A DNA stretch of 64,000 nt from Candidatus Latescibacterota bacterium (GCA_965204725.1 OZ242005.1:4816079-4880078); one strand, 5' to 3'. Positions 33,331 through 63,956 are shown, counted from the first letter of the stretch. Program-made: numbers and translations. Notes: a model not told the origin generated them from the letters alone.

Positions 33331-33366
33331 TTAGCACGGCGCGACTATTTATGAGATAACTTCTAG
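33331..33366. mobile_element. Solo relic of the IS left terminus
   Basis: 33343-33366 (GACTATTTATGAGATAACTTCTAG) matches the outer end of IS copy 2 (36811-36834) at 23 of 24 positions. Weaker identity extends about 12 nt further inward. Confidence 0.7.
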
Positions 33367-34160: not shown

Positions 34161-34170
34161 AGCCCATTCT

Positions 34171-35856: not shown

Positions 35857-35985
35857 CGTCAGCAGCGAAGCTACCCCAGAGTCCTGACCCTAGGGTAGCT
35901 TCTAAGTTGCTGCGTCGCTGCTGATACTGCTATAGTTATGATTCTGCGAGTAAGCCTAATTCGCAAAATCAAAACACCACGGTAT

Positions 35986-44630: not shown

Positions 44631-44810
44631 ATGTGGCGCGATATCATCGTAGAAGAAATTCGCCGCAATCGTCAGGTGTATGCAGCAAAATTTCATCACG
44701 ACATCAAAGCGATCTGCCGCGCCGCCCGCGAGCAGCAAAGAAAAAGCGGGCACAAGATCGTTTCTTTGCCGCCGCGACCTGTCGCAACAGCTACGGAGGA
44801 TAGAGGATAA
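44631..44810 (+). CDS. 59-aa hypothetical protein (below the ORF-track cutoff)
   Basis: Hand translation gives MWRDIIVEEIRRNRQVYAAKFHHDIKAICRAAREQQRKSGHKIVSLPPRPVATATEDRG. GGAGGA lies upstream (ATGGAGGAATAACACCATG). It ends 4 nt before the likely start of the RM gene. Confidence 0.5.
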   Translation: MWRDIIVEEIRRNRQVYAAKFHHDIKAICRAAREQQRKSGHKIVSLPPRPVATATEDRG

Positions 44811-44814
44811 TTTT

Positions 44815-47800: not shown

Positions 47801-48006
47801 GCGGCTACCAAGTCTGCAACAAATGGTTGAAAGATCGCAAAGATCGCCGCCTCACCCTCGACGACATCCGCACCTACTGCCGGATGGTAACAGCCATCGG
47901 GCTGACGCTCGATATTCAGCAAGAACTTGACGTGGTATATGGCGGTGTGGAGAATAGCTGTGTGTCGGTTGGGGCCGAAACAATCACCGAAAGGGGCTTG
48001 ACATGA
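44815..48006 (+). CDS. Single-chain restriction-modification enzyme, MmeI-like (type IIL/IIG): PD-(D/E)XK nuclease + gamma-class N6-adenine methyltransferase + C-terminal specificity region
   Basis: Contains GNPDFRLW...VGYVEAKKP (a D-x13-ExK nuclease motif), LLDPAAGTMTF (SAM motif I) and ILGNPPYSG (motif IV NPPY). The C-terminal LHAPAYREKYAEFLRIDFPRIPF block is seen in type ISP/PglX/MmeI-like proteins. I moved the start to GTG 44815, because the track start at 44680 overlaps the 59-aa ORF in another frame. Confidence 0.65.
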   Translation: MNQRSIFSTYLNDLTAVVRQGDAREESFYPALADMLRETARATGRTHVHVTTLPKPTEGGNPDFRLWNGTDRIVGYVEAKKPTEERLDLVENSEQLKRYRSTFPNLILTNFLEFRLYRDGERVDAVSVGRPSVLNALGTTPPLENQAELAALLDRFLDFALPSMFTAESFAVELAKRTRLLRDVIGEQFEQERNAPKMLSGFFEAFQTYLIGSLTTDDFADLFAQTIAYGLFAARTRAGDGFNRRVAFDNIPHTIGVLRDLFRYISLDELPAPLAWCVDDLAEVLSVADAPGILDSYYREGKGGDPIVHFYETFLAQYDPDERERRGVYYTPEPVVGYIVRSLNGLLKTEFDKRDGLASDGVMLLDPAAGTMTFVARAAQQAVAEFEEKYGSGGRADFIRRHILENFYALELMMAPYAVGHLKMSFFLEELGHRLADDERVPFYLTNTLDMEELEESRLPGLSALAEESRLAGAVKKQTPILVILGNPPYSGHSSNTGDWITELINDYKQVDGEPLGERNLKWLQDDYVKFLRFAQWKVEQAGRGVVGMITNHSYLDNPTFRGMRQSLMQTFDDIYILDLHGNSLKKETSPDGSPDQNVFDIRQGVAIAFFVKRGEGRESEAVVQHAECYGMRESKYERLDAHDLGSTKWQQINPASPFYLFVPRDAALEAEYRRFLSIPEVFSISEVFPINSVGVVTARDRLTIHWSEQETWDTVRAFLEMDPELARQGYKLGDDTQEWKVTMAQKDLRDSGPKRENVIPLLYRPFDVRHTYYTGHSRGFICRPRSEVMRHMLAGGNLALCVGRQGQVIGAGEWNLVYCSQNIGDLNLFYRGGNVNFPLYLYPTADRDDLFAQHESSERQPNLSPKLVEMLEEAHGQAPSPEAIFYYTYSVLHAPAYREKYAEFLRIDFPRIPFTKDSALFAKLAELGERLVGLHLLTSPELDPPACRFDGEGDAVVARTKAQGFRYDADEQRMYVNKTQYFGPVPPAVYAYPIGGYQVCNKWLKDRKDRRLTLDDIRTYCRMVTAIGLTLDIQQELDVVYGGVENSCVSVGAETITERGLT

Positions 48007-51218: not shown

Positions 51219-52430
51219 ATGGTCGACCGCCCCAAAATCGCCGCTATCAGCACCATTTTCCACAAATACTCCCACACCCAGCACATCGTCGATCGCTTCT
51301 TGGAAGGCTACGGCTGGAACGGCCGCCACCACCGGCCGGCGATGGACTTGGTCTCGCTCTACGTCGATCAGGTCGACCCCGACCCGGAGGCCGACCGCCC
51401 CGACCTGAGCCGCGACCGCCAAGCGCGCTTTCCGCAGCTAACGATCTATCCGACCGTGGCCGACGCCCTGACGCTGGGCGGCTCAACCCTCGCCGTGGAT
51501 GGCGTCCTGCTCATCGGCGAGCACGGCCGCTACGGCCACAATGAAAAGGGCCAGCACCTCTACCCGCGCTACGAGCTGTTCAAACAAATCGCCTCGGTCT
51601 ATCGCACGACCGGCAAGAGCGCGCCCGTGTTCAACGACAAGCATCTTTCTTGGAACTGGGACTGGTGCCAAGCGATGTACGATGTTGCGCAAGAGCTCGA
51701 TTTCGCCTTTATGGCCGGTTCTTCGCTGCCCGTTACTTGGCGCACCCCGTCGCTCGACATGCCCCTCGGGGCCGAGGTTGAAGAAGCCGTCTGCGTCTGC
51801 TATGGCGGCGTTGATAGCTACGACTTCCACGGCTTGGAGACCGTACAGTGCATGGTCGAGCGCAGAAAGGGCGGCGAGACGGGCGTCAACCGGCTCCGGG
51901 CCTTTCGCGACGACCACTTCTGGCAGGCCCACGCCCAAGGGATGTGGTCGCCGGCGCTCTTTGCCGCCTGCCTGTGCCGCAGCCACACGCTCGCGCCAGC
52001 GAGGCCCGGGTTCAACAACCCCTTCCCCACCATCGACGAACTCAAGCACCTAGTCAAAAGCCCGGTCGCCTACCAGTACGAGCACGCCGATGGCCTCCGC
52101 TCGACCATGATCTTGATGAACGGACTCGTCGAAGATTTCAACTTCGCCGCTCGGCTCAATGGACGGGCCGAGCCGCTCTCGACGCAGATGTACTTGCCCA
52201 TGCCCCCGGCCCGCACCACGCTGGCCAACTTCTTCAGCCCGCTGGTCAACAACATTGAGCGGATGTTCCTGACCGGCCAAGCCTCCTATCCGGTTGAACG
52301 CACCCTGCTCACTTCGGGCTTGGTCATCGCCGGCGTCGATAGCCTCCACCAAGGCCAAGCCGCAGTCGAGACGCCCCATCTAAACATCGCCTACCAACCC
52401 ACCGCAGAATCTACCTTCTGGAGAACGTAG
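51219..52430 (+). CDS. Conserved hypothetical protein, tandem paralogue A
   Basis: 403 aa, clearly homologous along its full length to 52457..53638. Shared blocks include VSLYVDQ, IGEHG.Y..NEKGQ.LYPRYE.F, NDKHLS, AGSSLPVTWR and ERR.GGETG. Confidence 0.7.
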   Translation: MVDRPKIAAISTIFHKYSHTQHIVDRFLEGYGWNGRHHRPAMDLVSLYVDQVDPDPEADRPDLSRDRQARFPQLTIYPTVADALTLGGSTLAVDGVLLIGEHGRYGHNEKGQHLYPRYELFKQIASVYRTTGKSAPVFNDKHLSWNWDWCQAMYDVAQELDFAFMAGSSLPVTWRTPSLDMPLGAEVEEAVCVCYGGVDSYDFHGLETVQCMVERRKGGETGVNRLRAFRDDHFWQAHAQGMWSPALFAACLCRSHTLAPARPGFNNPFPTIDELKHLVKSPVAYQYEHADGLRSTMILMNGLVEDFNFAARLNGRAEPLSTQMYLPMPPARTTLANFFSPLVNNIERMFLTGQASYPVERTLLTSGLVIAGVDSLHQGQAAVETPHLNIAYQPTAESTFWRT

Positions 52431-52456
52431 CCTCTTTCCTTGGAGCCTTCCCACTC

Positions 52457-53638
52457 ATGGCCACCAAACGCATCGCCGTCATCGCCACCATCTATCGCTA
52501 TCTCTCGCACGCCCAGCACTTTGCCGACCGCTTCTTAGTCGGCTATCCCTACGGCGGTCGCTGGCAGCGCCCCGACTGCAAGATCGTCTCGCTCTACGTC
52601 GATCAGCAGCCCGAAGGCGACCAAAGCCAAGACCGGGCGCGCGAGTTCGGCTTTGCCGTGTACCCCACCATTGCCCAAGCCCTGCGCTGCGGCGGCGACG
52701 AACTCGCTTGCGACGCCGTCCTGATCATCGGCGAGCACGGCGAGTACCCCAACAACGAAAAGGGGCAAAAGCTCTACCCGCGCTACGAGTTTTTCAAAGA
52801 ATGCGTCCAAGTCTTTGAAGAAGACGGCCGCACCGCGCCCATCTACAACGACAAGCACCTCTCATACAGCTTCGACAAGGCACGCGAGATGGTCGCCGAT
52901 GGCCACCGGCTCGGCTTCCCAATTTTGGCCGGTTCCTCGCTGCCCGTAACTTGGCGTCTGCCCGATGTCGAGTTGCCTTTGGGCTGCCAGATCGAAGAGG
53001 CCCTAATGATCGGCTGCGGCGGCTCCGACCCGATGGACTACCACGCCCTAGAGGCCATGCAGTGCATGATCGAGCGCCGCTCCGGCGGCGAGACCGGGAT
53101 CCGAGCCGTTCAACTGATCGAAGGAGACGACGTGTGGAAAGCGGGCGAGGAGGGGCGTTATTCGTTGGAATTGCTCGAAGCCGCCCTCTCGCGCAGCGAC
53201 ACCCCGTGCGGCAAAACCGACGAGGACGGCCGCACCCAAGACTTGCTGGGCAACGGCGAGTTGCCGCGGCTCGTCAAGGAGCCAGCCGCGTACTTCATCG
53301 AGCACAACGACGGCCTCAAGACGACCCTGCTGATGCTCAACGGCGCCATCCGCGACTACTGCTTCGCCGGCAAGCTGGCGGGCGAAGACGCGCCCATCTC
53401 GACCCAGTTTTTCTTGCCGCCGACGCCCAACGTCACCTACTCGGCCTGTCTGGTCGCCAAGATATGGGAAATGATCGAGACCGGCCGCGCACCCTTTCCC
53501 GCCGAGCGCACCCTAATCGTCAGCGGCGCGCTCGAAAGCTGCCTGACCTCCAAGGTGGAGGGGCACAAGCGGCTCGAAACGCCTCATCTCAAGGTAGAGT
53601 ACCAAGCGCCTGCCGAGTCGCATCACGGCCGCTTTTAG
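52457..53638 (+). CDS. Conserved hypothetical protein, tandem paralogue B
   Basis: 393 aa; see paralogue A. Confidence 0.7.
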   Translation: MATKRIAVIATIYRYLSHAQHFADRFLVGYPYGGRWQRPDCKIVSLYVDQQPEGDQSQDRAREFGFAVYPTIAQALRCGGDELACDAVLIIGEHGEYPNNEKGQKLYPRYEFFKECVQVFEEDGRTAPIYNDKHLSYSFDKAREMVADGHRLGFPILAGSSLPVTWRLPDVELPLGCQIEEALMIGCGGSDPMDYHALEAMQCMIERRSGGETGIRAVQLIEGDDVWKAGEEGRYSLELLEAALSRSDTPCGKTDEDGRTQDLLGNGELPRLVKEPAAYFIEHNDGLKTTLLMLNGAIRDYCFAGKLAGEDAPISTQFFLPPTPNVTYSACLVAKIWEMIETGRAPFPAERTLIVSGALESCLTSKVEGHKRLETPHLKVEYQAPAESHHGRF

Positions 53639-53667: not shown

Positions 53668-54705
53668 ATGAAAGGAAGCATCATGCCTACCATCCCCACG
53701 CGCTCTTTGCGCACCGGCGTTGAGTTGAGCACCCTCGGCTTTGGCGGTGCCCCTTTGGGCGAGCTTTTCGATCCGGTCAGCGAAACCCAAGCCCAAGACA
53801 CCCTGCAAGCGGCTTGGGACGCCGGTATCCGCTACTACGACACCGCCCCGTTTTACGGCTATGGCAAAAGCGAGCACCGCCTCGGCCACTTTCTCCGCCA
53901 GCAGGAGCGCGGCGACTTCGTGCTCTCGACCAAGGTCGGCCGAGTGCTCACCGCCACCCGCAATCTCCATTCTTTCGAGCAGGGCTTCTGGATCGGCGGC
54001 CTGCCCTTTGACTTCCGCTTCGACTACGGGTACGATGGCATCATGCGCTCGTGGGAAGACAGCTTGCAGCGGCTGAGCCTCAACTCCATTGACCTGCTGT
54101 TGATCCACGACCTCGACAGCTTCTTCCACGACAGCGAGCAGCGCTTCTCCGCCCACCTCAACCGCCTGATCACCAGCGGCTGGCGCGCCCTCGACGAGCT
54201 GCGCTCCCACGGGCTGATCAAGGCCGTTGGTGCTGGCCTCAACCGCATGGGGGCCATGCCGCGCCTGCTCGACGGGGTGGACCTCGACTTCTGCATCGTC
54301 GCCATGCCCTATACGCTCTTGGACCAAGACTCTCTCGACGAGGAGTTTCCCCTCTGCGAGGAGCGCGACGTGCGCATCGTCATCGGCGCGGTTTTCGCTT
54401 CCGGCATCCTCGCCTCCGGCCCGGTCGAGGGTGCTCGCTACGCCTACGACACTGCGTCGCCCGAAATCCTCGCCAAGACTCGCCGCATCCAAGCCGTCTG
54501 CCAGCGGCACGATGTCCCCTTGCCGGCCGCGGCCATGCAGTTCCCGCTCGGGCACCCCCTCGTCGCGGCCATCATCCCCGGTGCCCTCGTCCCGGCGCAT
54601 GTCGAGACCAATGCCCAGTGGTTTAAGCACACCATACCAACCGATCTGTGGGCCGAGCTAAAGGCCGAGGGATTGTTGCGGGCAGATGCCCCGACGCCGA
54701 ACTAA
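53668..54705 (+). CDS. Aldo/keto reductase
   Basis: Contains LGFGGAPLG, IRYYDTAPFYGYGKSEHRLG and LLLIHD. Only the last roughly 345 codons of track ORF 52951..54705 are real. The start is either ATG 53668 or ATG 53683. Confidence 0.8.
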   Translation: MKGSIMPTIPTRSLRTGVELSTLGFGGAPLGELFDPVSETQAQDTLQAAWDAGIRYYDTAPFYGYGKSEHRLGHFLRQQERGDFVLSTKVGRVLTATRNLHSFEQGFWIGGLPFDFRFDYGYDGIMRSWEDSLQRLSLNSIDLLLIHDLDSFFHDSEQRFSAHLNRLITSGWRALDELRSHGLIKAVGAGLNRMGAMPRLLDGVDLDFCIVAMPYTLLDQDSLDEEFPLCEERDVRIVIGAVFASGILASGPVEGARYAYDTASPEILAKTRRIQAVCQRHDVPLPAAAMQFPLGHPLVAAIIPGALVPAHVETNAQWFKHTIPTDLWAELKAEGLLRADAPTPN

Positions 54706-54715
54706 GAGGTTGAGC

Positions 54716-57700
54716 ATGAACCATAAGCAGGTATTTGATCACATCCTCGGGCGGCACTACACGAACTTCGACGGGCTGGCCGGGATGCACGTGGAAGACA
54801 TCTACCAAGACCGCCGCGGCCTGCTCTGGATCGCCACGGCCGACGGCGGCGTGGGCCGGTTCGACGGAGCGAATTTCGACATCTTTAGCCTCTCGAGAGG
54901 GGTTCCCCATATCACGGTAATGACGATTGCTGAGGACCCAGACGGGCGAATGCTCTTCGGCACTCTCGGCGGCGGGCTAGCCGTATATGACGGGCAGGGG
55001 TTTCAGGTGCATACCACCGAGCACGGGCTGCCGTCCAATGAGATCATGAGCCTGCAACCCCAAGCCGATGGCTCAATGCGGATGCTGACCGGCGCGGGGA
55101 TAGGCCGGTTCGTCGATGGCCAGTGCGTAGAGTGCGTGACAGAAATTGCGGGGCAGCCGCTAGGCCCGGTGTACGACATGGCGACCGACGCGGCCGGTAC
55201 GACGTGGTTGGCGACGCGGGAGCGCGGGGTTCTCAGCCTAGAGGGCCAGCCCCTGAGTGGGGACTTAGGCACGGGAAGCGGCGCGATGCAGTGGCCGTGG
55301 AAATTCGCCCAAGGCCCCTCCGGCCCTCTGTGGATCGCCTTTCGCTACACCGGTCGCAAACCCATTATCGGCTGCTATGATCCAGCGAGCAACCAGCTCG
55401 AACTCGTCGAGGTGGATGACCCAGCCGAGGAAGCCGAGATCGTCTGGCACGGTACGCGGCACGTGCGCGTCGATGATAGAGGCTTGCTGTGGATGACCTG
55501 CCGGGGCGTCTTGGTGTACGACGGACGGGCTTGGCATCCATTCGCCACCGAGTTGCCGGATAGCCATTTTTCGGCGACGCGACTGACGTATGAAGACCGC
55601 GAGGGGAACATCTGGTTGGGGCTGTGGGGCGGCGGGCTGGTTTTTTGCGATCCGGTCAGCGTCCAGCTATACACCCAAGCCGATGGCCTGCCCGACAGCG
55701 AGGTCCAGTGTCTGAGCGAAGACCGCGAAGGTCGGCTGTGGATCGGTACGATGGGGGGCTTGGCCTGCCGCCAAGACGACCGGATTCGCCCGGTAGATCC
55801 AAGGCGGGAGGTCTCAACGCTGGTGATTGACCAACAGGGGCAAGTCTGGAGCACAGGACCTGAGGGAGACATATTCAAGGCGACGGGTGGAGAGGCCGAG
55901 GCGATTGAGGGGGCCGAGACGACCCTCACGGAAGGAATCGCGGGGCTGTGGGAAGACCAAGCAGGACGCCTAAACGTCTGCACTTCCGAGGGGCGATTGG
56001 GGCGGATCGAACAAGGTCGCTTTACGCCACTTGCGGAGCGGTTTCCCCGCGGTTGCACGGTCGTGTTACAGGATGGAGCAGGGACCCTCTGGGTCGGCCT
56101 CAGTAGGAAAGAGTCCGCGCTATGCTATTATGAGGATGGTCGTTTCCACACGCCGACGGTGGCCGGCGTGAAAGACATCGGGAGTGTGAGTGCTTTGTGC
56201 GAGCACCAAGGCGCACTCTGGATCGGGACGGAAAACTATGGCCTGTTCGCCTTGGACTACGCTTCCGAGGAGATCCGCCGGTTTACGGTGGATCAGGGGG
56301 GGCTGTCGGTCAATGGGATCTCGGCTCTGATGAGCGATCCGCAAGGCGATCTGTGGATTGGGACCAGCGGTGGGGGCGTCCTGAAGTACGACGGCCGGAC
56401 CTTCCATACCATTCGGCTGGGACAGGGCGCGTTGGAAAACATCGTCGAGGCCATTGTGCGCGACAGCCGGGGCCGGCTGTGGTTTGGGACGCGCAGGGGT
56501 CTCATTGCGTATCGGCCCGGGGAGACGCCGCCGCGCATCCTAATCCGCCAAGTCGTGGCCGGCCGAACTTGGGACGACCCCCAAGCCGTGTCCTGCCCAG
56601 ACAGCACCCCCGAGATTCAGTTTCACTTCCAAGGCATCAGTTTCAGGAGTGGGGCCGGGCAGATGCGCTACAGCCACCGGCTCGTCGGCCCCGGCCGGGC
56701 CGAAGAGTGGAGCGCGTTCACGCCCGCCAATAAGGCGACGTACCGAGACGTGCCGGCCGGCCAGTTCCACTTTGAGGTGCGGACCACCGATCGGGATGGC
56801 TTGCTATCGGACATCGCCCGCCTAGAGGTTCGAGTGACCCCCTCTCCCCAGCGGCACATAGAGCACATGCTGCGGGCCTCGCATCAGGGTTTTATCAGCC
56901 AAAGTCCGGCCATGGCCGAGGTTCTCGAACGGGTCGACTCAATGGCCGAGGCGGACCTGCCGGTGCTGGTGCTGGGCGAGACCGGGGTTGGCAAGGGGGT
57001 GTTGGCGCGGCTTATCCACGACCTTAGTCCGCGCCGAGCGAAACCCTTTATAGCGGTCAATTCCGGGGGCTTGTCCACCGGGGTGATACACAGCGAACTG
57101 TTTGGCCACGAAAAGGGGTCCTTTACCGACGCGCATGCCCAAAGAATCGGCTATTTTGAACGGGCTGATGGCGGCACCTTGTTCCTCGACGAGATAGGCG
57201 ATTTGTCCGTAGAGTCCCAACAGCTCTTGCTCCACATCTTAGAGGATAAGAACCTGATGCGCCTCGGCGGCGGAAAGCCGATCCCGATAGATGTGCGGAT
57301 TGTTGCTGCGACCAACAAGGACCTCGAAGAGGCCATTCAGGCGGGCGTGTTCCGGGATGATCTGCTCTATCGGCTGAGGACATTATCAGTATTAGTACCG
57401 CCGCTGCGGGAGCGTCGGGAGGATATCCCGCTCTTGGCGGCGTATTTTGCGAACCAGTGTGCCCAAACCCTAAAGCGGCCGGTGCCGACCTTAAGCGACG
57501 AAGTACTCGCGCACTTGCAGGAATATCCTTGGCCGGGGAATGTGCGCGAATTGGCGCATCTGATACAGCAGGCGGTGGTGCTGGGCAAAGGGGATGTCAT
57601 GCGGATAGAGGATGTACCGCTGATGGCGGCCCCACCTGTTGAACAAGGCTCCGACGAGGGCACTGACGATGACGCCAAAAAGTGGGGATTCTTCGACGAG

Positions 57701-57871
57701 GATGCTAGAAATGAAGCCGAAAAGCAGCGAATTCTGAAGGCTCTCCAAACCACGAACTGGCGGGTCTCTGGCCCGCGGGGGGCGGCTCAGTTGTTGGAGA
57801 TAAGCCCGGAGAAGCTGCGCTATCGCATGCGTAAGTACGGGTTGAAACGGCCCGGGAAGGCGTCGCAGTAA
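54716..57871 (+). CDS. Sigma-54-dependent transcriptional activator with N-terminal beta-propeller repeats + Y_Y_Y sensor region (no TM, no receiver, no kinase)
   Basis: About a dozen repeats of the form G.LWIGT..GGL..YDG (two-component-regulator propeller type). A Y_Y_Y-like block follows (MRYSHRLVGPGRAEEWSAF...GQFHFEVRT). The AAA+ core has GETGVGKG, ELFGHEKGSFTDA (a GAFTGA variant), LFLDEIG and PWPGNVREL. The C-terminal Fis-type HTH is RGAAQLLEISPEKLRYRMRKYGL. I moved the start to ATG 54716. Confidence 0.8.
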   Translation: MNHKQVFDHILGRHYTNFDGLAGMHVEDIYQDRRGLLWIATADGGVGRFDGANFDIFSLSRGVPHITVMTIAEDPDGRMLFGTLGGGLAVYDGQGFQVHTTEHGLPSNEIMSLQPQADGSMRMLTGAGIGRFVDGQCVECVTEIAGQPLGPVYDMATDAAGTTWLATRERGVLSLEGQPLSGDLGTGSGAMQWPWKFAQGPSGPLWIAFRYTGRKPIIGCYDPASNQLELVEVDDPAEEAEIVWHGTRHVRVDDRGLLWMTCRGVLVYDGRAWHPFATELPDSHFSATRLTYEDREGNIWLGLWGGGLVFCDPVSVQLYTQADGLPDSEVQCLSEDREGRLWIGTMGGLACRQDDRIRPVDPRREVSTLVIDQQGQVWSTGPEGDIFKATGGEAEAIEGAETTLTEGIAGLWEDQAGRLNVCTSEGRLGRIEQGRFTPLAERFPRGCTVVLQDGAGTLWVGLSRKESALCYYEDGRFHTPTVAGVKDIGSVSALCEHQGALWIGTENYGLFALDYASEEIRRFTVDQGGLSVNGISALMSDPQGDLWIGTSGGGVLKYDGRTFHTIRLGQGALENIVEAIVRDSRGRLWFGTRRGLIAYRPGETPPRILIRQVVAGRTWDDPQAVSCPDSTPEIQFHFQGISFRSGAGQMRYSHRLVGPGRAEEWSAFTPANKATYRDVPAGQFHFEVRTTDRDGLLSDIARLEVRVTPSPQRHIEHMLRASHQGFISQSPAMAEVLERVDSMAEADLPVLVLGETGVGKGVLARLIHDLSPRRAKPFIAVNSGGLSTGVIHSELFGHEKGSFTDAHAQRIGYFERADGGTLFLDEIGDLSVESQQLLLHILEDKNLMRLGGGKPIPIDVRIVAATNKDLEEAIQAGVFRDDLLYRLRTLSVLVPPLRERREDIPLLAAYFANQCAQTLKRPVPTLSDEVLAHLQEYPWPGNVRELAHLIQQAVVLGKGDVMRIEDVPLMAAPPVEQGSDEGTDDDAKKWGFFDEDARNEAEKQRILKALQTTNWRVSGPRGAAQLLEISPEKLRYRMRKYGLKRPGKASQ

Positions 57872-57878
57872 GGCTGGC

Positions 57879-57924
57879 TTCCCGCCCCGTGTCGGGGCAC
57901 GGGGGGACGGTCTGGCTCGGGAAG
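57879..57924 (+). repeat. Nested-hairpin element, copy 2 (8 nt after the activator stop)
   Basis: The outer stem pairs CTTCCCG with CGGGAAG. The inner hairpin is CCCCGTG-TCGGGG-CACGGGG at 57885-57904. It is the reverse-complement relative of 23591-23637. Confidence 0.8.
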
Positions 57925-57993
57925 GACGGAGACCGGCTCTACGGCTTGTTCAACACGCCCCAATTTTCAGATCGCTTCTTAGAGGACGCTGTA

Positions 57994-58062
57994 AAAAGTT
58001 GTGCAAAAGTTGTGCAAAATCTGTTCACTTGCACAAGTTTTGCACAAGTTTTGCACAAAAAA
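57994..58062. promoter_or_regulatory. Array of five phased 8-mer sites: TTGTGCAA x2 then its complement TTGCACAA x3 (candidate activator UAS)
   Basis: Sites at 57999-58006, 58010-58017, 58029-58036, 58040-58047 and 58051-58058. Spacing is 11 bp within each arm. Confidence 0.6.
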
Positions 58063-58140
58063 GTCGCAAATCAACTTGCGATGACGCCTCATGCTGGCCT
58101 CGTTGAGATTTTTTTTTGCTATCCAACGTCTTGTTTTTCA

Positions 58141-58170
58141 ATCCTTTAGGTATTCCTAAAGGATTTTTTT
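58141..58170 (+). terminator. Intrinsic-terminator-like hairpin (10-bp perfect stem, 4-nt loop, T run)
   Basis: Sequence is ATCCTTTAGG-TATT-CCTAAAGGAT followed by TTTTTT. An A/T-rich stretch with a T9 run lies at 58109-58117 just upstream. Confidence 0.6.
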
Positions 58171-58188
58171 GTGCCGGACCGGCATCTT

Positions 58189-58204
58189 TGGCACGAAATT
58201 TGCA
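58189..58204 (+). promoter_or_regulatory. Sigma-54 (-24/-12) promoter
   Basis: TGGCACGAAATTTGCA matches the TGGCACG-N4-TTGCW consensus exactly. The GG is at 58190-58191 and the GC at 58202-58203. It lies 46 nt upstream of ATG 58250. Confidence 0.75.
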
Positions 58205-58249
58205 ATAGTCTTTACAAGCGCATTTCATCTACCATGAGGCGTAACGGAT

Positions 58250-59395
58250 ATGGAAGCCCTGCTCAACGATTTTGGCCGCGTGTTTTTGCTGGAGTTGGTT
58301 ATGGCCTGCGCCATTACCATCTGCGGTTGCTATACAACCTATACCGATATTCACTTCCGCCATATCCCCCATTGGGCTAGTTGGGGACTGCTGGCCGTAG
58401 GTTTAATAGGCCAAGGTCTATTTTGGATTTGGGGTGCGGTCGAACTGGACCAAGCAGGCATCGTCTTGTTGGTCGGTTTTGTTGTTGGTTACGTACTCTA
58501 TATCTACGGATTTTGGGCACCCGGCGACGCCAAGTTGTTTTGGGCTTTTGTCTTGGTGCTGCCGCCGACGTTCTTCCCCTCCACTTCCCTCTCCTCCTTT
58601 GACGCGCCGATTTGGGCGCTCCTGCTCAACGCCTTAGTGCTCACCTGTTTTGTCTTGCTGGCGCTGTGGGCGGTTTTGCGTCGGGGGCGGTCGGCGGAAG
58701 TCGAGGGGGATTGGGGGCCATCGCAATGGCTGTATCTAGGCTTGGAGTTGGCCGGCCTGATAGGGCTCGTGCTGGGGTTTGGCTCCTTCCTGCTGGCCGA
58801 GACGATGACCTTTGTAGAGGTCGTGGTCGCCATCTTGGTGCTCTATCTGCTCGTTGACCACTTCGTCCCCCAGAGTTACCGGCTGACCTTGGCCCTGCCC
58901 GGTCTTATCCTCGGCGGCTACACGGCCCTGCAATCGGGAGAATGGCTGATCTATCTGGTGCTGTGGGTCCTCGCTTGGGGGGTGTTCTCCCTCTATAGCA
59001 TCATCCGGCATCTAGTCCCTCGGCACTTCGTACAGGCGATTCCTATTCAGGCGTTGCGCGCCGGCATGGTGCCGCAGGTAGCGATCTACGCGGCGGATAC
59101 CGGCGGAGCGGCGGAATACCGTTGTGGCGCAGAGGTTGGGCCGGGGCAAGATGTGCTGTGTTATCCTGGCCGGCCGTTGACCAAGGGGCAGGTGCGGACG
59201 TTGCACGAAAAATCGGCGGGCGGTGCTTTCGCGCCGTTTGGCCATGAGTTGGCAGTGGAACTGGCCGTCCCTTTCGCGCCGATAATCGCCGTCGCTGGGG
59301 TGCTGACCCTAGTCTTGGGCGGCAGTCTAATCAGACCCCTGATACAGTTGTTCTCTCCGTGGCTGCCGTCGCTTCAGCAGTTGTTGGTGGGGTAA
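58250..59395 (+). CDS. Peptidase A24 (prepilin/preflagellin peptidase)-like polytopic membrane protein
   Basis: Two Asp motifs in the expected context: TYTDIHFRHIP and FWAPGDAKLFW (GxGDxKL-like). Multiple TM helices. Confidence 0.65.
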   Translation: MEALLNDFGRVFLLELVMACAITICGCYTTYTDIHFRHIPHWASWGLLAVGLIGQGLFWIWGAVELDQAGIVLLVGFVVGYVLYIYGFWAPGDAKLFWAFVLVLPPTFFPSTSLSSFDAPIWALLLNALVLTCFVLLALWAVLRRGRSAEVEGDWGPSQWLYLGLELAGLIGLVLGFGSFLLAETMTFVEVVVAILVLYLLVDHFVPQSYRLTLALPGLILGGYTALQSGEWLIYLVLWVLAWGVFSLYSIIRHLVPRHFVQAIPIQALRAGMVPQVAIYAADTGGAAEYRCGAEVGPGQDVLCYPGRPLTKGQVRTLHEKSAGGAFAPFGHELAVELAVPFAPIIAVAGVLTLVLGGSLIRPLIQLFSPWLPSLQQLLVG

Positions 59396-59397
59396 TC

Positions 59398-60015
59398 ATG
59401 AACCGAGATAGAAAAGACCCTGTAACACTGGCCTTTGGCGTCCTGTTGGTCGCCTTGCTGCCAACCTTTTTCCTGTTGGTGAGCCACTACCCGTCGTTAG
59501 AGGAGCGCGTGCAACAGTTGAAGCCTAAGCCCTTGGTGCCCGCGCCTTCACTGGAGGATCTGTTGGCGCAAGTCAGCCAAGCCGTATCCGACAGTACGCT
59601 CCAACTCCAACAGGTATGGGCTGCCGAGCCGGAACCGACTTCTGGCCTAGTGGCCGACTACAAGGTCGTGCGCGGCGGCCTAGCGGTCTATCGGCTGGTT
59701 CTATTCCGCCACGACATCGCCTGTAGCGTGTGCCGGGACGTGTTGGCCGCCGCTCTGTACGATGGCGACTCACTGGTGCAGATCTTTCTGCTCGACGATT
59801 GGGAGGTGCGCGGCGAGCGGGTTGATACCGCACAGTTTTTGCGCCAATTCGCGGGTCGCCCGCTGGCAACCGAACTGGCTCTTGAGGCCAATGTCGATGG
59901 GATCAGCGGGGCCACGTTTTCAACCGGGGGCCTCGTCGAACAGCTCAACACGGCGGCGGCGTGGGTGCGGGCGCATCCGCTGGAGCCGCCGGCAAGCGAG
60001 GGAGAAAACCTGTGA
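59398..60015 (+). CDS. Membrane-anchored FMN-binding (FMN_bind) domain protein
   Basis: N-terminal TM helix (LAFGVLLVALLPTFFLLV). C-terminal FLRQFAGRPL...NVDGISGATFSTGG is the flavinylation-type SGAT motif. I moved the start to ATG 59398. Confidence 0.7.
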   Translation: MNRDRKDPVTLAFGVLLVALLPTFFLLVSHYPSLEERVQQLKPKPLVPAPSLEDLLAQVSQAVSDSTLQLQQVWAAEPEPTSGLVADYKVVRGGLAVYRLVLFRHDIACSVCRDVLAAALYDGDSLVQIFLLDDWEVRGERVDTAQFLRQFAGRPLATELALEANVDGISGATFSTGGLVEQLNTAAAWVRAHPLEPPASEGENL

Positions 60016-60551
60016 ACGCTCTCAGACCCAATCGCTGGGCTACGACCTTGATCGTGGCTACGGGCCTCCTGTTGGGAGCCTGTGTATTCCTAGCGGCCAA
60101 GATCGTCAATCCTCCGCCGATTGATCGGCTCGATGTGGCGTTTTGGGATTTGCTGGGTACGCAAGCGGCTATCCTCGAATTAGAGAGCCTGACGGGCACA
60201 GACAAGGTTTCCAACGCGCAGTTTGCGGGCGAGCCCTATCTGCTCATTTTCGCCGACCCGACTTGCAGTGCCTGCGAGGCCATTTATCCCCACTTGCTGC
60301 GCGCCTCGCAAGTGCAGGGCGTGAATGTCCTGTTCATTGCCTCGGGCGACCGGCAGGCGATGCAAGACAAAGTGGAGGAACACAGTTTTGCATTCCCGGT
60401 CGCCTTTGATTCCCTGTTGACGGCCAATAAGCCCTTTGAGGTGGGTGCTTTTCCCGCCTCTGTACTGGTGGATGCCGAAGGCAACATTGCCAAAGCCGCT
60501 ACCGGCGATCAGGGTGCTGTCGCCGTAATACGCTTGGCTGGTAGTTCCTGA
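60012..60551 (+). CDS. Thioredoxin-fold (TlpA/redoxin-like) protein, CSAC active site, membrane-anchored
   Basis: TM helix ATTLIVATGLLLGACVFLAA, and LLIFADPTCSACEAIYP. Its GTG start overlaps the upstream stop (GTGA at 60012-60015). Confidence 0.7.
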   Translation: MNALRPNRWATTLIVATGLLLGACVFLAAKIVNPPPIDRLDVAFWDLLGTQAAILELESLTGTDKVSNAQFAGEPYLLIFADPTCSACEAIYPHLLRASQVQGVNVLFIASGDRQAMQDKVEEHSFAFPVAFDSLLTANKPFEVGAFPASVLVDAEGNIAKAATGDQGAVAVIRLAGSS

Positions 60552-60566
60552 AAGGATGGATGCGCC

Positions 60567-61271
60567 ATGTACGTTGTAACTCTCTTGCGTCGTCCGGTGG
60601 TGTGGACGGTGGTGGCCAGCGTCGCGGTCGTGGTCTTTTTGGCCTTGCGTCCCTCTTCGTCGGCCCTCTCGCCGGTGGTGTGGACCGAGCCCTCGGCTAA
60701 TCCGCTGGCCGAGGTGCTGCGGCCGGGGGATACCGCGCCGGACTTCGCGCTGCCGGCGGTACAGGGCGGCACGGTCGCCTTGAGTGCGTTGCGGGGAAAG
60801 CCCGCTTTGCTGGCCTTTGTTACGGCGGAGTGTCCGTATTGTCAGAAGCTATACAAGCAACTCGAAGCCTTTGAACTGAATGCGGACCAACAACTCGTAT
60901 TCATCTGCCCAAGCGAGGAGGGTGCTCGGAAAATCAGCGAGACCTATTCCTTTACGTATCCGGTGTTGATCGACTCGGCTGGGGCGATTTCACAGGCGTA
61001 CAAAACCCCTGGGGTGCCTGCGGTGTATCGGGTCGGCCCCGAGGGGAAGATTGTGGATTTGGCGGTGGGATGGCCGACGGCTTGGACGTTTGTTCGGGGT
61101 TTTGGCCGCCTCCAGCTTAGCGAAGGCTCTGAAGGTTATTCGTTTAATGGCTCAATCATCATGCTGGCCCAGAAAGGAGGTGCATCCCGTGCTCGTAGGT
61201 TTGATGCTCGTCAGCAACCACAACGGTTTGCTGATCCTTTTTCCAATTACTCAAGGAGAATTGCGTTATGA
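60567..61271 (+). CDS. Thioredoxin-fold (TlpA/redoxin-like) protein, CPYC active site, membrane-anchored
   Basis: TM helix VVWTVVASVAVVVFLAL, then PGDTAPDFALP...ALLAFVTAECPYCQKL...GVPAVYRVGPEG. Confidence 0.7.
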   Translation: MYVVTLLRRPVVWTVVASVAVVVFLALRPSSSALSPVVWTEPSANPLAEVLRPGDTAPDFALPAVQGGTVALSALRGKPALLAFVTAECPYCQKLYKQLEAFELNADQQLVFICPSEEGARKISETYSFTYPVLIDSAGAISQAYKTPGVPAVYRVGPEGKIVDLAVGWPTAWTFVRGFGRLQLSEGSEGYSFNGSIIMLAQKGGASRARRFDARQQPQRFADPFSNYSRRIAL

Positions 61272-61609
61272 AATCTCTACTTTTGTTCTTGCAGGCGGTG
61301 CTGGTGCTGCCGCTGGTGGCTCCGCTGGTGGAGTTCGCCACGTCAACCAGCGGGCACGTTGAGCCGCGTGAGGGGTTGGCGCTGGGCTGGCTGGGCAGCG
61401 TGGTGGCGGGGCTGGCGGTGGTGTTCGGCACGGCCGACCAGACCCAGGCCGATTCCTGCTACGGAATCTCGGAGGGAAGCAAGGGATCGTACACAACGTC
61501 GGATCCATGCGAGTGGAGGGACCATAAACCCTTCAGGTATTGGGTGAATTATTATCGCCACTACGAAGGGGGACCGGGCTGTGTCTATCTGTATTCTGTA
61601 TGCGTATAG
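61268..61609 (+). CDS. Small secreted/membrane protein with a 4-Cys, Tyr/Trp-rich C-terminal module
   Basis: ATG overlaps the upstream stop (ATGA at 61268-61271). It has a signal-like N-terminus, a second hydrophobic segment (LALGWLGSVVAGLAVVFG), and then DSCYGISEGSKGSYTTSDPCEWRDHKPFRYWVNYYRHYEGGPGCVYLYSVCV. Confidence 0.55.
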   Translation: MKSLLLFLQAVLVLPLVAPLVEFATSTSGHVEPREGLALGWLGSVVAGLAVVFGTADQTQADSCYGISEGSKGSYTTSDPCEWRDHKPFRYWVNYYRHYEGGPGCVYLYSVCV

Positions 61610-61720
61610 CCCGGTCGCCCAGTAGCCCCGTCGCTACGGCTCCCGGCTGTATCTATCAGCGTTTTGCATGCGGTCAGGTGAGCTCCTGTGACGTTATACG
61701 GTAGTTGCCAAGACGACGCG

Positions 61721-61755
61721 CCCCTGTGGTACTTTCGGGCCAAGTACCACAGGGG
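61721..61755 (+). terminator. 14-bp perfect hairpin downstream of the small Cys-rich gene
   Basis: Sequence is CCCCTGTGGTACTT-TCGGGCC-AAGTACCACAGGGG. No T run follows, so its terminator function is inferred only from position. Confidence 0.5.
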
Positions 61756-61817
61756 TAGGCGTCCTTATGTCGCTCAGAACATCCTAAAACAAATCTATCA
61801 CGCTTTGGAGGTTCGTT

Positions 61818-63956
61818 ATGCGCGGTTTGCTCGTTGCGATTGGATTGGTGGTGGCTCCATTTAAGGTCTTGGCTTTAACATGGGATTTTGACGCGGGCAC
61901 GACTTGGGGATGGGCAGCCCAAGAGAGCGCCTTCGGCTCAGACCATGGTACGACCACGGTGTACAGCGAAGTCGCAGATGGCGTCTGGCGCATTGCGCCG
62001 GTGCCGCACGGGAAAAGACCAGCCATTCGCTTGCTCTCGCCGCTGATTGGGGAAGACTCTGACCTGTTCGACTGGGTCACCCTACGGCTACGCATCATCC
62101 ACGATCTCCCCACCGAGGGGGTCCTTGAAATGTCGTGGTCCAATGTCGAGTACAGACGCCGCAAGAAGGAAGAACCCAGCGTAGGGTTGGGATTTTTTGT
62201 AAGCCGTCCTCAAGTTTATTCCACCGAATGGGAAGACATCACCATAGATATACGGGCTTTGGAAGCGGCTCCAGCAGGAGAGATCGATTGGGAGGTCACT
62301 TGGGAGGACACTCTCTTCCACTTCTTCTTAGACCTAGACTTATTGCATCTACACGACATACAAGAATCCAGCTTAAGCCCGGCGGCTCGTCCGACCTTTG
62401 TCGAAGTCGATTGGATTCAACTGACGGGTGCTGAAGAGTTGCTGCTGGGGGAGTTGCAGCCTCGGGCGAGCATCGTGGAGGCCGGGTTGCCTGGGACGTT
62501 GTTTGCGGAACCGCGTTTTTCGGTGTTGGGTCGAAATATCGGTAACCCAGGATCGCATGGTACTTTGGGCGATGTGGATGGCGATGGGGATGCCGATCTG
62601 GTCGTGAAATGGGAGGAAATAATGGCGAGCGATGGCTGGTCCATAGCGACCAGCGATGGCTTGGGGAGCTTGGTCCCTACCCAAGAGGTCCTCCTCCCAC
62701 AGGAGGCTTATTCGATTCCGATGATTACGGGAGGCGATTTCGACGGGGATGGGCTTCTCGATCTGGCCTTTAGTACCGGTCGAACTATCGAATTGTGGCT
62801 CAACCGGGGCGAGGATGGATTTGAAACCATCCTACAGCTATCCGATAGCTATTTCATCGGTCTAGCCGATGGCGACGGCGATGGCGATGTGGACCTGTTG
62901 GCGGTAGAAGACCGCGACGACCTATGGTCTAACTTGACTATGTGGATCAACGATGGCGCGGGCGGGTTTGCCCACAGCGATCGGTTCGTCCTCGACACCG
63001 AAGAAGAGCTCGGTCGTTTCCTGCTGGCAGGGCAACCGGAGGGCGAGGCCGTGCGTGTGCTGTGGATCCGACCCTGCTGGAAGCCGCAGGGGCCGTGGCG
63101 GCTGACCCAGCCATGGGCGGCAAACGAGGAGCCACCGCTGTTTTTTGAGCTTGGGGAGGTCAACCCCTGCGACATGGACCTGCTGGCCGATCTGGATGGG
63201 GATGGAGCGGTAGAGTTAGTCGGAACGCCCGAGCGGAACCTGTTCCCGGGCTTTTCTCGGGGCAACACCCATCACGGTTTAGCCCTGTGGCGCGTGAACC
63301 CTTCGGGCGGAGTGGAACGCCACACCCTGCTCGGTCCGCAGGTGATCGTGCCGTATTCGTGGCCTAAAAGTGGGGTCATTGCCAGCGACCTGACCGGCGA
63401 TGGCCTTTTGGACTTGGCCGTAATCAATACCAACTTAGCGATGAATCCGGCCCTGATTGTCTTGGTTGGCCAGCGCGATGGCCTGCCCGTCGTCGAAGGG
63501 CACTACCCCCTGCCCACCATCGGCCGCAGCCTGCTCGCAGGCGACGTCAACGGCGATGGGGCGACCGATCTGGTCGTGCTGGGGCGGAGTCAGCGCGGCG
63601 ACGGCGGAGCCTTCGTCTTCCTCAACCAAGGCGTTCCCGCCACTGCCATCGCCGCCGAGACGACGACCATGCCTACGACCTTTGCCCTCGGTGCCAACTA
63701 TCCCAACCCGTTCAACCCGGCCACGACCATTCCCGTGTCGGTGGCGGTGGGTGCGGGCGAGGTCGATTTAACCATCTATAACGTCTTGGGGCAGCCGGTG
63801 CGCCGCGTGTGGGCGGGTTCGTTGGCGGCGGGCGAACACCGGCTGGCTTGGGATGGCCGGGACACGCAGGGGCAACCCGTTGCCGCTGGAGTCTATTTGT
63901 ATCGGTTGCAGGTGGGCGACCAGACGCGCATTCGCAAGATGGTCAAAATTGAGTAG
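61818..63956 (+). CDS. FG-GAP/VCBS-repeat protein with T9SS-type (Por/FlgD-Ig-like) C-terminal sorting domain
   Basis: Repeated DxDGDGxxDL calcium-binding-type loops (GDVDGDGDADLVV, GDFDGDGLLDLAF, DGDGDGDVDLLAV, DLDGDGAVELVG, DLTGDGLLDLAV, GDVNGDGATDLVV). The C-terminus is LGANYPNPFNPATTIPV...GVYLYRLQVGDQTRIRKMVKIE. Confidence 0.8.
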   Translation: MRGLLVAIGLVVAPFKVLALTWDFDAGTTWGWAAQESAFGSDHGTTTVYSEVADGVWRIAPVPHGKRPAIRLLSPLIGEDSDLFDWVTLRLRIIHDLPTEGVLEMSWSNVEYRRRKKEEPSVGLGFFVSRPQVYSTEWEDITIDIRALEAAPAGEIDWEVTWEDTLFHFFLDLDLLHLHDIQESSLSPAARPTFVEVDWIQLTGAEELLLGELQPRASIVEAGLPGTLFAEPRFSVLGRNIGNPGSHGTLGDVDGDGDADLVVKWEEIMASDGWSIATSDGLGSLVPTQEVLLPQEAYSIPMITGGDFDGDGLLDLAFSTGRTIELWLNRGEDGFETILQLSDSYFIGLADGDGDGDVDLLAVEDRDDLWSNLTMWINDGAGGFAHSDRFVLDTEEELGRFLLAGQPEGEAVRVLWIRPCWKPQGPWRLTQPWAANEEPPLFFELGEVNPCDMDLLADLDGDGAVELVGTPERNLFPGFSRGNTHHGLALWRVNPSGGVERHTLLGPQVIVPYSWPKSGVIASDLTGDGLLDLAVINTNLAMNPALIVLVGQRDGLPVVEGHYPLPTIGRSLLAGDVNGDGATDLVVLGRSQRGDGGAFVFLNQGVPATAIAAETTTMPTTFALGANYPNPFNPATTIPVSVAVGAGEVDLTIYNVLGQPVRRVWAGSLAAGEHRLAWDGRDTQGQPVAAGVYLYRLQVGDQTRIRKMVKIE

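Follow-up and report, generated by a model that had tools for sequence, protein, structure and literature searches.

A sigma-54-controlled gene set of Candidatus Latescibacterota proposed to mature and fold exported, disulfide-rich peptides

What does a prepilin-type peptidase process in a locus that encodes no pilus? The question is raised by five adjacent genes of a Candidatus Latescibacterota bacterium, which lie on the plus strand at positions 58250-61609 of a 64,000-nt stretch of DNA (GCA_965204725.1 OZ242005.1:4816079-4880078; hereafter the window, from whose start all coordinates are counted). They encode an A24-like peptidase (gene 1, 58250-59395, 381 aa), an FMN-binding-like protein (gene 2, 59398-60015, 205 aa counted from its ATG), two thioredoxin-fold proteins (Trx1, gene 3, 60012-60551, 179 aa counted from its GTG; Trx2, gene 4, 60567-61271, 234 aa) and a small cysteine-rich protein (gene 5, 61268-61609, 113 aa). 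A first-pass annotation of the window had described these genes as a packed, sigma-54-controlled set, forming an envelope redox and processing module that acts on the small protein or on the FG-GAP protein encoded downstream; our list of open reading frames (ORFs) has all five on the plus strand at the coordinates that it gave, and the junctions also read as claimed. Based on the evidence presented here, the small protein is the more plausible of the two substrates, and we propose, with a probability of about 0.55, that the locus is a sigma-54-switched system for the maturation and oxidative folding of exported, leader-dependent, disulfide-rich small peptides.

Do the five genes belong together in other genomes? 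Homologues of gene 1, found in a scan of 185,579 species genomes, led to 35 loci, in which gene order was mapped by our own ORF calls, phmmer and a hidden Markov model (HMM). Nearly all of these loci are in metagenome-assembled genomes (MAGs) titled Candidatus Latescibacterota, a few being labelled Gemmatimonadota or Rhodothermales; isolate names and assembly series suggest that the source MAGs come from sponges or corals. There are two to three paralogous loci per genome, and they fall into three types according to the identity of their peptidase to that of the window: type A (~80%), type B (~41%) and type C (~33%). The set does recur: the peptidase gene, the small leader-bearing gene, one or more thioredoxin-fold genes and the FMN-like gene co-occur in ~30 loci of all three types, far above chance. 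The small gene is present in every complete related locus, and the FMN-like gene is in every case next to the peptidase gene or close by. In type A loci the order is an enhancer-binding protein (EBP) gene, peptidase, FMN-like, Trx, Trx, small gene, one to four FG-GAP genes, a GT1-transglutaminase fusion and GT2. Type B loci begin with EBP, one or two small genes, FG-GAP, FMN-like, peptidase, Trx, Trx and TPR, and continue with a transglutaminase-core protein, GT2, DUF4159 and an F5/8-type-C/FlgD_ig protein. In type C the order is FMN-like, Trx, peptidase and small gene, the last directly after the peptidase gene; most of these loci are without an FG-GAP gene and none has a glycosyltransferase. 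Considering the three types together, the conserved core is thus restricted to the peptidase, the small precursor, the thioredoxin(s) and the FMN-like protein. An HMM built from nine Latescibacterota leaders found further precursors in loci L031 and L041. The window itself holds a single precursor and a single peptidase gene.

The candidate substrate has four cysteines within its 113 residues, and consists of a leader (...PLVEFATSTSGHVEPREG|LALGWLGSVVAGLAVVFGTADQTQA|D) followed by a hypervariable core of ~52 residues. It has no match in Pfam or NCBIfam, and a PDB sequence search with two peptide cores returned nothing significant. A profile search recovered a family of at least 335 such precursors, all of them unnamed proteins from metagenomes or MAGs, with several copies per genome and several on one long contig. 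Their first ~60 residues are near-invariant (...EF-x-TS-x-SG-x4-R-x-G|L-x-LGW, then ~18 hydrophobic residues and an AxA-like site), and their last 45-60 residues are hypervariable. Leader and core statistics were taken from the 119 listed members that bear the anchor motif. Around the conserved glycine (positions -14 to +28), identity is 88% in type A and 85% in type B, and in the cores it is 40% and 60%, respectively. Nearly all cores are unique (117/119); the first cysteine lies 28 residues past the conserved glycine in 102 of the 119, and the cysteine count is even (4, 6, 8 or 10) in 116. The glycine before the hydrophobic stretch is kept in types A, B and most of C, within R-[EQ]-G followed by LALGWLGSVVAGLAVVFG. 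Position +5 is a tryptophan (a phenylalanine in L032) and not a glutamate. The leaders of the most divergent loci read Phi-x-[EDF]-F-x-x-S-x-S-G-x4-[RKE]-x-G, then [LFI]-x-[LV]-[GA]-[WF] and ~18 hydrophobic residues, and a small-x-small site stands just before the first cysteine in these loci as well (AQA|D, AEA|E, STA|C, AAA|H). The small protein combines a class III arrangement, in which a hydrophobic stretch directly follows a polar leader with a terminal glycine, with a Sec-type c-region. The first-pass annotation had stated that the window contains no pilin-like (class III signal) substrate; with this invariant n-region R-x-G and the hydrophobic stretch that follows, the statement was probably wrong.

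A conserved leader, a variable core and processing genes alongside are also what is expected of precursors resembling those of ribosomally made peptides with post-translational modifications (RiPPs). No core-modifying enzyme beyond those for disulfide formation, and no RiPP recognition element (RRE), is encoded in the window. How leader and core diverge is clearest in L012, where three tandem pairs of a small gene and an FG-GAP gene (12993-19003) have leaders that are 93-99% identical at the DNA level and cores that are ~53% identical. Between these copies, dS is 0.02-0.22 in the leaders, and ~1.0 in the cores with a dN of 0.69; these figures refer to the L012 pairs only, those of L006 and L019 having been excluded since their leaders were misregistered. 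The L012 pattern suggests homogenisation of the leader or exchange of core cassettes. Tandem pairs of small and FG-GAP genes are also found in L006, L024, L026, L027 and L028.

Is gene 1 a plausible peptidase for this leader? The protein passes the cut-off of PF01478 (Peptidase_A24) only just, with 26.9 bits against 26.5 for residues 21-134. Most of its homologues carry a precomputed PF01478 match, and none of the NCBIfam models matches it. The two prepilin-peptidase aspartate motifs noticed on first reading, T32-D33 (YTDI..R.IPN) and G92-D93-A94-K95 (APGDAKLFWA), do not vary among 13 aligned sequences, whose identity is 30-87%, and the PFAP motif in the last transmembrane (TM) helix is kept there as well. 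Both aspartate motifs also recur in distant members of the family (L045-L051). In the AlphaFold2 (AF2) model (pLDDT 72) there are ~10 TM helices, and residues ~256-340 form a soluble domain rich in beta-strands. From this model, hydropathy and the count of helices and charges, both aspartates would lie at cytoplasmic helix ends and the beta-domain would be cytoplasmic. We propose that D33 and D93 are the catalytic residues and that the protein is the leader peptidase of the small precursor. Its assignment as a bifunctional prepilin peptidase of the PilD type (A24A) was considered and rejected: the N-terminal DiS_P_DiS region is absent (Pfam, E<=0.1), and the ~30 loci contain no genes for a pilus or a type II secretion system (T2SS).

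Genes 2-4 would provide the redox part of the system. According to hydropathy and charge, each of their products has a single N-in TM anchor and an acidic extracytoplasmic domain. Gene 2 scores 19.1 bits against FMN_bind (PF04205), in its C-terminal part only and under the cut-off of 22, and a type B homologue has no Pfam match. The AF2 model of gene 2 (pLDDT 80) supports the family named in the first-pass annotation: the top five Foldseek matches are RnfG chains (E 6e-6 to 2e-4, probability 1.0, TM-score ~0.5), the best being 7zc6_G (E 6e-6), and isolated FMN-binding domains (8p2a, 8p2b) come next. Gene 2 thus encodes a TM-anchored periplasmic protein that, according to its predicted structure, has an RnfG fold. 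Two motifs are kept across all paralogue types: an invariant R-x-D-I-[AT]-C-x-x-C-[RL]-D, and DG[IV][ST]-x-AT, which reads DGISGAT in the window and contains SGAT or TGAT in nearly all homologues. The two thioredoxin-fold proteins pass the AhpC-TSA cut-off of 26 bits (Trx1, 36.9; Trx2, 63.8). Trx1 has the active site CSAC, and C-[SRDN]-A-C is kept in most type A and type B loci; the CPYC of Trx2 is kept in nearly all loci, with CPHC in L027. The dipeptide of CPYC is that of the oxidising DsbA/glutaredoxin kind. We propose that the FMN-like protein is the redox partner of the thioredoxins, and its [S/T]GAT motif suggests that it may be flavinylated. Neither the main ORFs of the window nor the annotated neighbour genes of the loci include an ApbE. 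More precise identities were rejected: the NCBIfam equivalog models for ResA, MauD, StoA and RnfG all score far under their cut-offs (23 and 16 bits for the RnfG models on gene 2, against 205 and 230).

What switches the locus on? Upstream of gene 1, on the plus strand, lies a sigma-54 promoter (TGGCACGAAATTTGCA, 58189-58204; -24/-12 boxes TGGCAC-GAAAT-TTGCA), 61 nt before the first ATG. The pattern TGGCA[CT]-N5-TTGC[AT] has this single match in the 64 kb, both strands having been scanned. The related loci, 751 kb in all, have 18 matches to this 16-mer pattern, of which 17 are just upstream of a system gene and the remaining one is within an FG-GAP gene (L015, 13918). Our own estimate of the chance expectation is ~0.01. 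The promoter stands before the peptidase gene in type A (~61-66 nt 5' of it in L008, L012, L015 and L037), before the small gene in type B, and before a Trx-peptidase-small unit in L035. No sigma-70-like site was found in 57800-61900. The adjacent plus-strand gene (54686-57871, 1061 aa) encodes a sigma-54 EBP with, according to Pfam, Reg_prop propeller(s), Y_Y_Y, AAA+, AAA_lid_14 and HTH_8 domains (Sigma54_activat, 205.9 bits; Reg_prop, 131.6), in which the GAFTGA loop is replaced by GSFTDA. It has no hydrophobic segment or TM helix, so its sensor part is cytoplasmic, and an orthologous or paralogous EBP adjoins the system in most loci. Putative upstream activator sites (57990-58064, no strand assigned; two copies of TGTGCAAAA(GT), then three inverted copies of TTGCACAA(GTT)) are located at -189 to -138 from the promoter. 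Other loci have three to five tandem or inverted repeats of ~11-20 bp at -140 to -190, with a sequence of their own for each EBP paralogue (e.g. TGTGCAAAAGT, AAAATCGTATA, CATACGGAAAATCGTATGA and GTTCCACGGAAAAGTCGTGGA, among loci L006, L013, L014, L021, L026, L036 and the window), which points to a separate DNA specificity for every activator paralogue. With -24/-12 spacing, an adjacent bacterial EBP and upstream repeats, the sigma-54 control that had been claimed for the operon is supported. The window does not seem to contain rpoN itself, no search having been aimed at it.

A further element lies ~20 nt upstream of the -24 box. This inverted repeat (AATCCTTTAGG-TATT-CCTAAAGGATT, 58140-58172, plus strand) has 11 pairs and a T-run, and is terminator-like; it is near-identical in sequence in most type A and type B loci, although protein identity between these loci is only ~41%. 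Its role could be that of an insulating terminator of the EBP gene, an IHF-type site or an operator for a regulator. Between the small and FG-GAP genes stands a perfect 14-bp hairpin without T-run (CCCCTGTGGTACTT / AAGTACCACAGGGG, 61721-61755, plus strand; dG about -35 kcal/mol). At the equivalent place ~25 loci have a hairpin of 14-20 bp whose sequence differs by lineage; the structure is thus conserved with covariation. Hairpins follow structural genes in bacteriocin and pilin operons, and this one may serve as an attenuator or mRNA stabiliser, through which more precursor would be made than products of the downstream genes.

The gene junctions were read directly from the sequence. The TAA of gene 1 (59393-59395) is separated by 2 nt (tc) from the ATG of gene 2 at 59398; genes 2 and 3 share GTGA (60012-60015), with GGGAG 8 nt upstream; gene 3 ends in TGA at 60551, 15 nt (aaggatggatgcgcc, including AAGGA) before the ATG of gene 4 at 60567; and genes 4 and 5 share ATGA (61268-61271), with an upstream AAGGAG that makes a strong ribosome-binding site for the small gene. 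This last overlap is created by a basic C-terminal tail of 46 aa on Trx2, which has 234 aa in the window and 188 aa in L009 and most relatives; L009 and others have a gap of ~128 nt at the equivalent of 61268, and the coupling of Trx2 to the small gene is thus lineage-specific. The fixed stoichiometry that had been deduced from the packing fails past the small gene, which is followed by a strong hairpin of conserved structure and whose overlap with the gene upstream is not conserved. Nor is the unit limited to five genes: transcription runs past 61609, and relatives continue into FG-GAP/T9SS genes (T9SS, type IX secretion system), a GT1-transglutaminase fusion and GT2, beyond the equivalent of the window. 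The downstream gene of the window (61818-63956, plus strand, 712 aa) encodes an FG-GAP/VCBS beta-propeller (FG-GAP_3, 74.9 bits; FlgD_ig, 46.5). As expected of T9SS cargo, it has a Sec signal, with an N-terminal hydrophobic segment, and ends in a type A sorting domain, for which TIGR04183 gives 35 bits where 23 are required.

Sorting tags may not be restricted to the FG-GAP proteins. In L033 and L035 (e.g. L033 11560-12579, L035 13475-15148), several proteins of ~240-340 aa without Pfam match are encoded beside the small genes; all of them end in ...AVESVTWGRIKA[SG]LSE, a C-terminus resembling a sorting tag that has so far escaped recognition.

How far does the peptidase family extend? An exhaustive profile search of 1.84 billion representatives gave 1714 matches at E<=1e-3; the number falls to 573 at E<=1e-10 and to 84 at E<=1e-30. 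The 150 best mostly cover the near-full profile (~330-400 aa), the others among them being shorter fragments. Some full-length relatives match Arc_PepC. Six distant members were looked up (L046, L047/L048, L049, L045, L050 and L051), of which that of L046 aligns with the window family over 339 columns (hhalign probability 99.6%). Their neighbours include small ORFs and peptide-tailoring genes. In L046, CCP_MauG, HxsD, PqqD and two radical-SAM genes (one SPASM) accompany two small ORFs directly 5' of the peptidase gene, and HxsD, an FGE-sulfatase and GT1 lie beyond it. L047/L048 have a sigma-54 activator, a 96-aa ORF, a Big_5/Transglut_core protein, the peptidase and a radical-SAM gene. L049 encodes a GT1::peptidase fusion (8001-10358, 785 aa) beside a 677-aa DSBA/GILT/cytochrome c554 protein, a second stand-alone A24-like protein, a methyltransferase-GT1, a radical-SAM protein and GT2. 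L045 has two GT1 genes. L050, whose neighbour genes suggest an archaeal host, has the peptidase, HxsD, a 66-aa ORF and a radical-SAM gene, and L051 an rSAM-SPASM gene, an 83-aa ORF, the peptidase, HxsD and an ABC/FtsX exporter. The small ORFs of these loci show a polar n-region, a hydrophobic stretch, a small-x-small site and a Cys- or His-rich body; that of L051 reads MNKKVTDFIKLENGNIGRKAAVMTGAALAASVLGALLTSPVEA|GHC... and has six cysteines.

These elements can be arranged into a scheme in which the substrate, the cleavage site, the redox direction, the flavinylation and the biological role of the peptides are all deduced from sequence. The cytoplasmic propeller-type activator would bind the upstream repeats and fire the -24/-12 promoter. 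The precursor would insert into the inner membrane by its hydrophobic segment, with the leader in the cytoplasm and the Cys-rich body in the periplasm, a topology suggested by the type B leader, which is without the extra hydrophobic stretch found in the window lineage. The A24-like protease would then read the invariant leader, possibly via its cytoplasmic beta-domain, and cut after the conserved glycine (R-x-G|L-x-L-G-W) in prepilin-peptidase style, as the chemistry of its family, the motif and the gene linkage suggest. Signal peptidase I would probably free the ~50-residue body at the AxA-type site. In the periplasm, Trx2 (CPYC), Trx1 (CSAC) and the FMN/CxxC protein with the RnfG fold would make and proof-read two to five disulfides; this role is suggested by their location, their motifs and the even cysteine counts of the substrates. 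The FG-GAP/T9SS proteins and, in relatives, the cytoplasmic GT1-transglutaminase and GT2 would be co-expressed partners, acting as carrier, as receptor or in further modification.

Several observations weigh against this scheme. The A24 Pfam score is borderline; Foldseek found no PDB match at E<1 for the peptidase model, a comparison that is weak for a helical membrane protein modelled at pLDDT 72, and phmmer and hmmsearch of PDB sequences with the peptidase recovered neither FlaK nor any A24 structure. On the redox side, [S/T]GAT is replaced by TQAT in L005 and TEAT in L022, and TlpA/ResA-like thioredoxins are usually reductants. Moreover, the window and the related loci showed no DsbD/CcdA, DsbB or ApbE, which leaves both an electron source or sink and flavinylation unsupported. 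As to the precursor, the leader of the window lineage has an extra N-terminal hydrophobic stretch (residues 3-21) that makes its topology ambiguous, and the hydrophobic segment with its AxA resembles an ordinary Sec signal peptide, so that signal peptidase I could suffice for maturation and the A24-like enzyme would then have another role. L001-L004 also contain, just downstream of the peptidase gene, coreless 45-aa ORFs (MKTFLFFVNSRSGFVRSRESLKVGWFAVVLMAFSLVILDDQVFSA; e.g. L001 9300-9437), which consist of the leader and the hydrophobic segment only, end exactly at ...FSA, where the signal-peptidase-type site lies, and have no Cys body. Finally, the leader HMM does not detect the small ORFs of L046, L047 or L051; their likeness to the precursors is thus architectural only, and homology is not claimed.

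The coreless ORFs bear most directly on our main rival explanation, which we consider rather unlikely. There, signal peptidase I would free the body and the A24-like enzyme would cleave the leftover signal peptide within the membrane, so that the leader is cleared or its N-terminal fragment becomes a cytoplasmic signal, for instance in feedback on the propeller of the activator. We know of no bacterial A24 enzyme that acts as a signal peptide peptidase. The GxGD proteases do include the eukaryotic signal peptide peptidase (PMC2947513), and a signal peptide that is itself the object of processing would agree with an AxA-type site immediately before the first cysteine in nearly all members, with a leader that is far more conserved than the body, silent sites included, and with glycines within the start of the hydrophobic segment (G-L-x-L-G-W). 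The leader-only ORFs ending in ...FSA after the peptidase gene would fit as well, but all are from one species and may be remnants of genes. Feedback would suit a cytoplasmic activator whose large sensor propeller has no known ligand, but the idea has no direct support, and the positions of the catalytic aspartates and the glycine at the n/h boundary suit a prepilin-type cut equally well.

If the cut after glycine is of the prepilin type, the products might be pilins. Mini type IV pilins or pseudopilins, assembled by a machinery encoded elsewhere and tipped by FG-GAP proteins as PilY1-like adhesins, would account for an A24 peptidase with both aspartate motifs, for the R-x-G|hydrophobic layout with a periplasmic Cys-containing head, and for variable heads in many paralogues, as in pilin families. 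We regard this as the least probable of the readings: an assembly ATPase, a platform protein, a secretin and minor pilins are absent from the ~30 loci, position +5 is a tryptophan instead of the glutamate of pilin assembly, and the hydrophobic stretch is short (~18 aa) and followed by the signal-peptidase-type AxA. In addition, the FG-GAP proteins have T9SS sorting domains and ordinary Sec signals, and the distant peptidase relatives are in peptide clusters of the rSAM/SPASM type. The FG-GAP proteins could conversely be the target, in a general envelope module for redox repair or for cytochrome or cofactor maturation that acts on FG-GAP/T9SS or envelope proteins, the small protein being an accessory. 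FG-GAP/T9SS genes do accompany most type A and type B loci, and thioredoxins like TlpA, ResA and MauD, to which the NCBIfam matches are weak, usually mature other proteins. However, the FG-GAP protein has two cysteines only, and L030, L031 and L033-L035 have the peptidase, thioredoxin and small genes without any FG-GAP gene. Ccm, Res and CcdA genes are absent, no CxxCH is evident in the small proteins inspected by eye, and an accessory subunit would not be hypervariable, multi-copy and even in cysteines. This reading is improbable, and of the first-pass proposal of an envelope redox and processing module, the action on the small protein stands while FG-GAP as a redox substrate is unlikely.

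Does the proposed maturation and folding system correspond to one already described? The first-pass annotation had set it apart from Tad/type IV pilus, Rnf/Nqr, Nos and Ccm systems, and this holds across the ~30 loci: none contains an assembly ATPase, a platform protein, a secretin, minor pilins, other Rnf/Nqr subunits (RnfA-E / NqrA-F) or Ccm/Res genes, and the defining partners of Tad/type IV pilus and Nos systems are absent from every locus. Ccm and ResBC-CcdA systems were likewise rejected, CcmF, ResB, ResC and CcdA being unseen among the called or matched locus genes. PADLOC models gave no match to the five products, only the AAA+ part of the activator being matched. Like the A24 prepilin and preflagellin peptidases (PilD, TadV/CpaA, FlaK, PibD), gene 1 is polytopic, with YTD33 after TM1, the G-x-G-D-type APGD93AKL and P-F-A-P in the last TM helix; some of its full-length relatives match Arc_PepC, a domain C-terminal to archaeal A24 peptidases, and its candidate substrate has a polar leader ending in glycine directly before a hydrophobic helix. 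Unlike these enzymes, it has ~130 extra residues of TM helices and cytoplasmic beta-domain and no methyltransferase or DiS_P_DiS, and no pilus, archaellum or T2SS genes are near the window locus. The small protein departs from class III substrates in its tryptophan at +5, its long invariant leader with S-x-S-G, the AxA after the helix and its hypervariable Cys body.

The precursor family is also reminiscent of the libraries of prochlorosin-type lanthipeptides and of conotoxin precursors, in which many paralogous precursors share one maturation machinery and a near-identical leader, silent sites included, precedes a divergent Cys-rich body of conserved cysteine parity. It differs in that the window has no LanM, other core-modifying RiPP enzyme or RRE, disulfide formation being the only modification deduced here, with glycosylation possible in relatives, and in that part of the leader is a membrane segment and an intramembrane aspartyl protease is proposed to remove it. 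Glycocin and sublancin operons (BdbA/BdbB) similarly associate a small Cys-rich precursor with private thioredoxin-type oxidoreductases, and glycosyltransferase genes occur in the clusters of relatives of the window locus. In contrast to those operons, there is no C39-peptidase ABC exporter and no double-glycine leader here, the glycosyltransferase of relatives is a GT1-transglutaminase fusion, and the envelope is Gram-negative with T9SS partners.

Flavinylated electron-transfer modules are another point of comparison. The portion of the flavinylation survey drawn on here (Meheust et al. 2021, PMC8238504) describes DsbD-DUF3570-thioredoxin-DUF4266 clusters and the interchange of FMN-binding and thioredoxin domains in P19 systems. 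These modules share with the window a TM-anchored periplasmic RnfG fold, an [S/T]GA[S/T] motif and thioredoxin-like neighbours; the window has no ApbE, DsbD, DUF3570 or DUF4266, and its FMN-like domain itself carries an invariant CxxC. That same portion of the survey does not mention a linkage of an A24-type peptidase with a peptide precursor. In the HXS antiphage system, which has four components (HxsA-D), a periplasmic effector is matured by HxsB/C/D, and HxsA is a larger protein with a peptidoglycan-binding domain, according to the sections consulted of PMC13128918. Some likeness is found around the distant peptidase homologues, where HxsD-like and radical-SAM genes stand beside small His-rich exported ORFs, and in the N-terminal processing that accompanies maturation of the exported effector, as described in those sections. 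However, the window has neither rSAM nor HxsD and no gene in common with HXS, and the word 'peptidase' is absent from the main text of PMC13128918. We found no description of the present gene set in the literature on Latescibacteria, sponge Cys-rich peptides, A24/prepilin peptidases, RiPPs or SPASM proteins. Its novelty is one of combination of known kinds, prepilin-type processing being joined to leader/core peptide clusters with private disulfide catalysts.

A wider reading can be put forward tentatively, as a possibility to which we give less credit than to the maturation system itself. The long A24-like protease and a membrane-embedded leader might together form an unrecognised and widespread platform for exported ribosomal peptides in Bacteria and Archaea, with exchangeable tailoring sets: radical-SAM/SPASM and HxsD-like proteins, glycosyltransferases, or a private oxidative-folding kit as in the window. 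The RnfG-fold protein, with its CxxC and flavinylation site, might then be a new periplasmic, flavin-linked disulfide catalyst doing a job of the DsbB/Erv type, and the precursors a conotoxin-like combinatorial library of knotted peptides in Latescibacterota associated with marine invertebrates. To our knowledge, prokaryotic GxGD proteases are known almost only as leader peptidases of pilins and archaellins, and a clade processing exported peptides other than pilins would, if true, widen their role. It would also give peptide-mining tools, which currently would not flag the locus, a new marker gene and leader signature. Hundreds of hypervariable, even-Cys peptides of ~50 residues with a common leader would constitute, if the proposal is right, a natural library of disulfide-rich scaffolds from uncultured bacteria, and the FMN/CxxC protein would be a candidate for disulfide generation outside the DsbA/DsbB paradigm. 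In the cytoplasmic, propeller-type activator, sigma-54 control gains an input for signals that is as yet unexplored. Knottin-like peptides have been obtained from sponge extracts, and their producers, like the catalysts that fold them, are mostly unknown (PMC12426817).

Other regions of the window were also annotated; among its larger ORFs, none encodes ApbE, DsbD or type IV pilus proteins. Two adjacent proteins of 403 and 393 aa without Pfam match are encoded at 51219-53638, upstream of an aldo/keto reductase and the activator gene, and recur in L008. A Type ISP restriction-modification enzyme (Type_ISP_C, 296.9 bits; N6_Mtase) is located at 44680-48006, and an RND efflux set (AcrB, HlyD, OEP) at 16970-23566. 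On the minus strand, ~26900-35900 is an island of low GC content (0.49-0.51, against ~0.60 elsewhere), which encodes an S8 subtilase, a TPR protein, a CPBP-like membrane protease (EEWLFRG), a Yip1-like membrane protein, a thioredoxin-like CSFC protein, two ABC transporter proteins and a 561-aa protein without family. This island may be a second, horizontally acquired cluster for the export of a peptide or bacteriocin.

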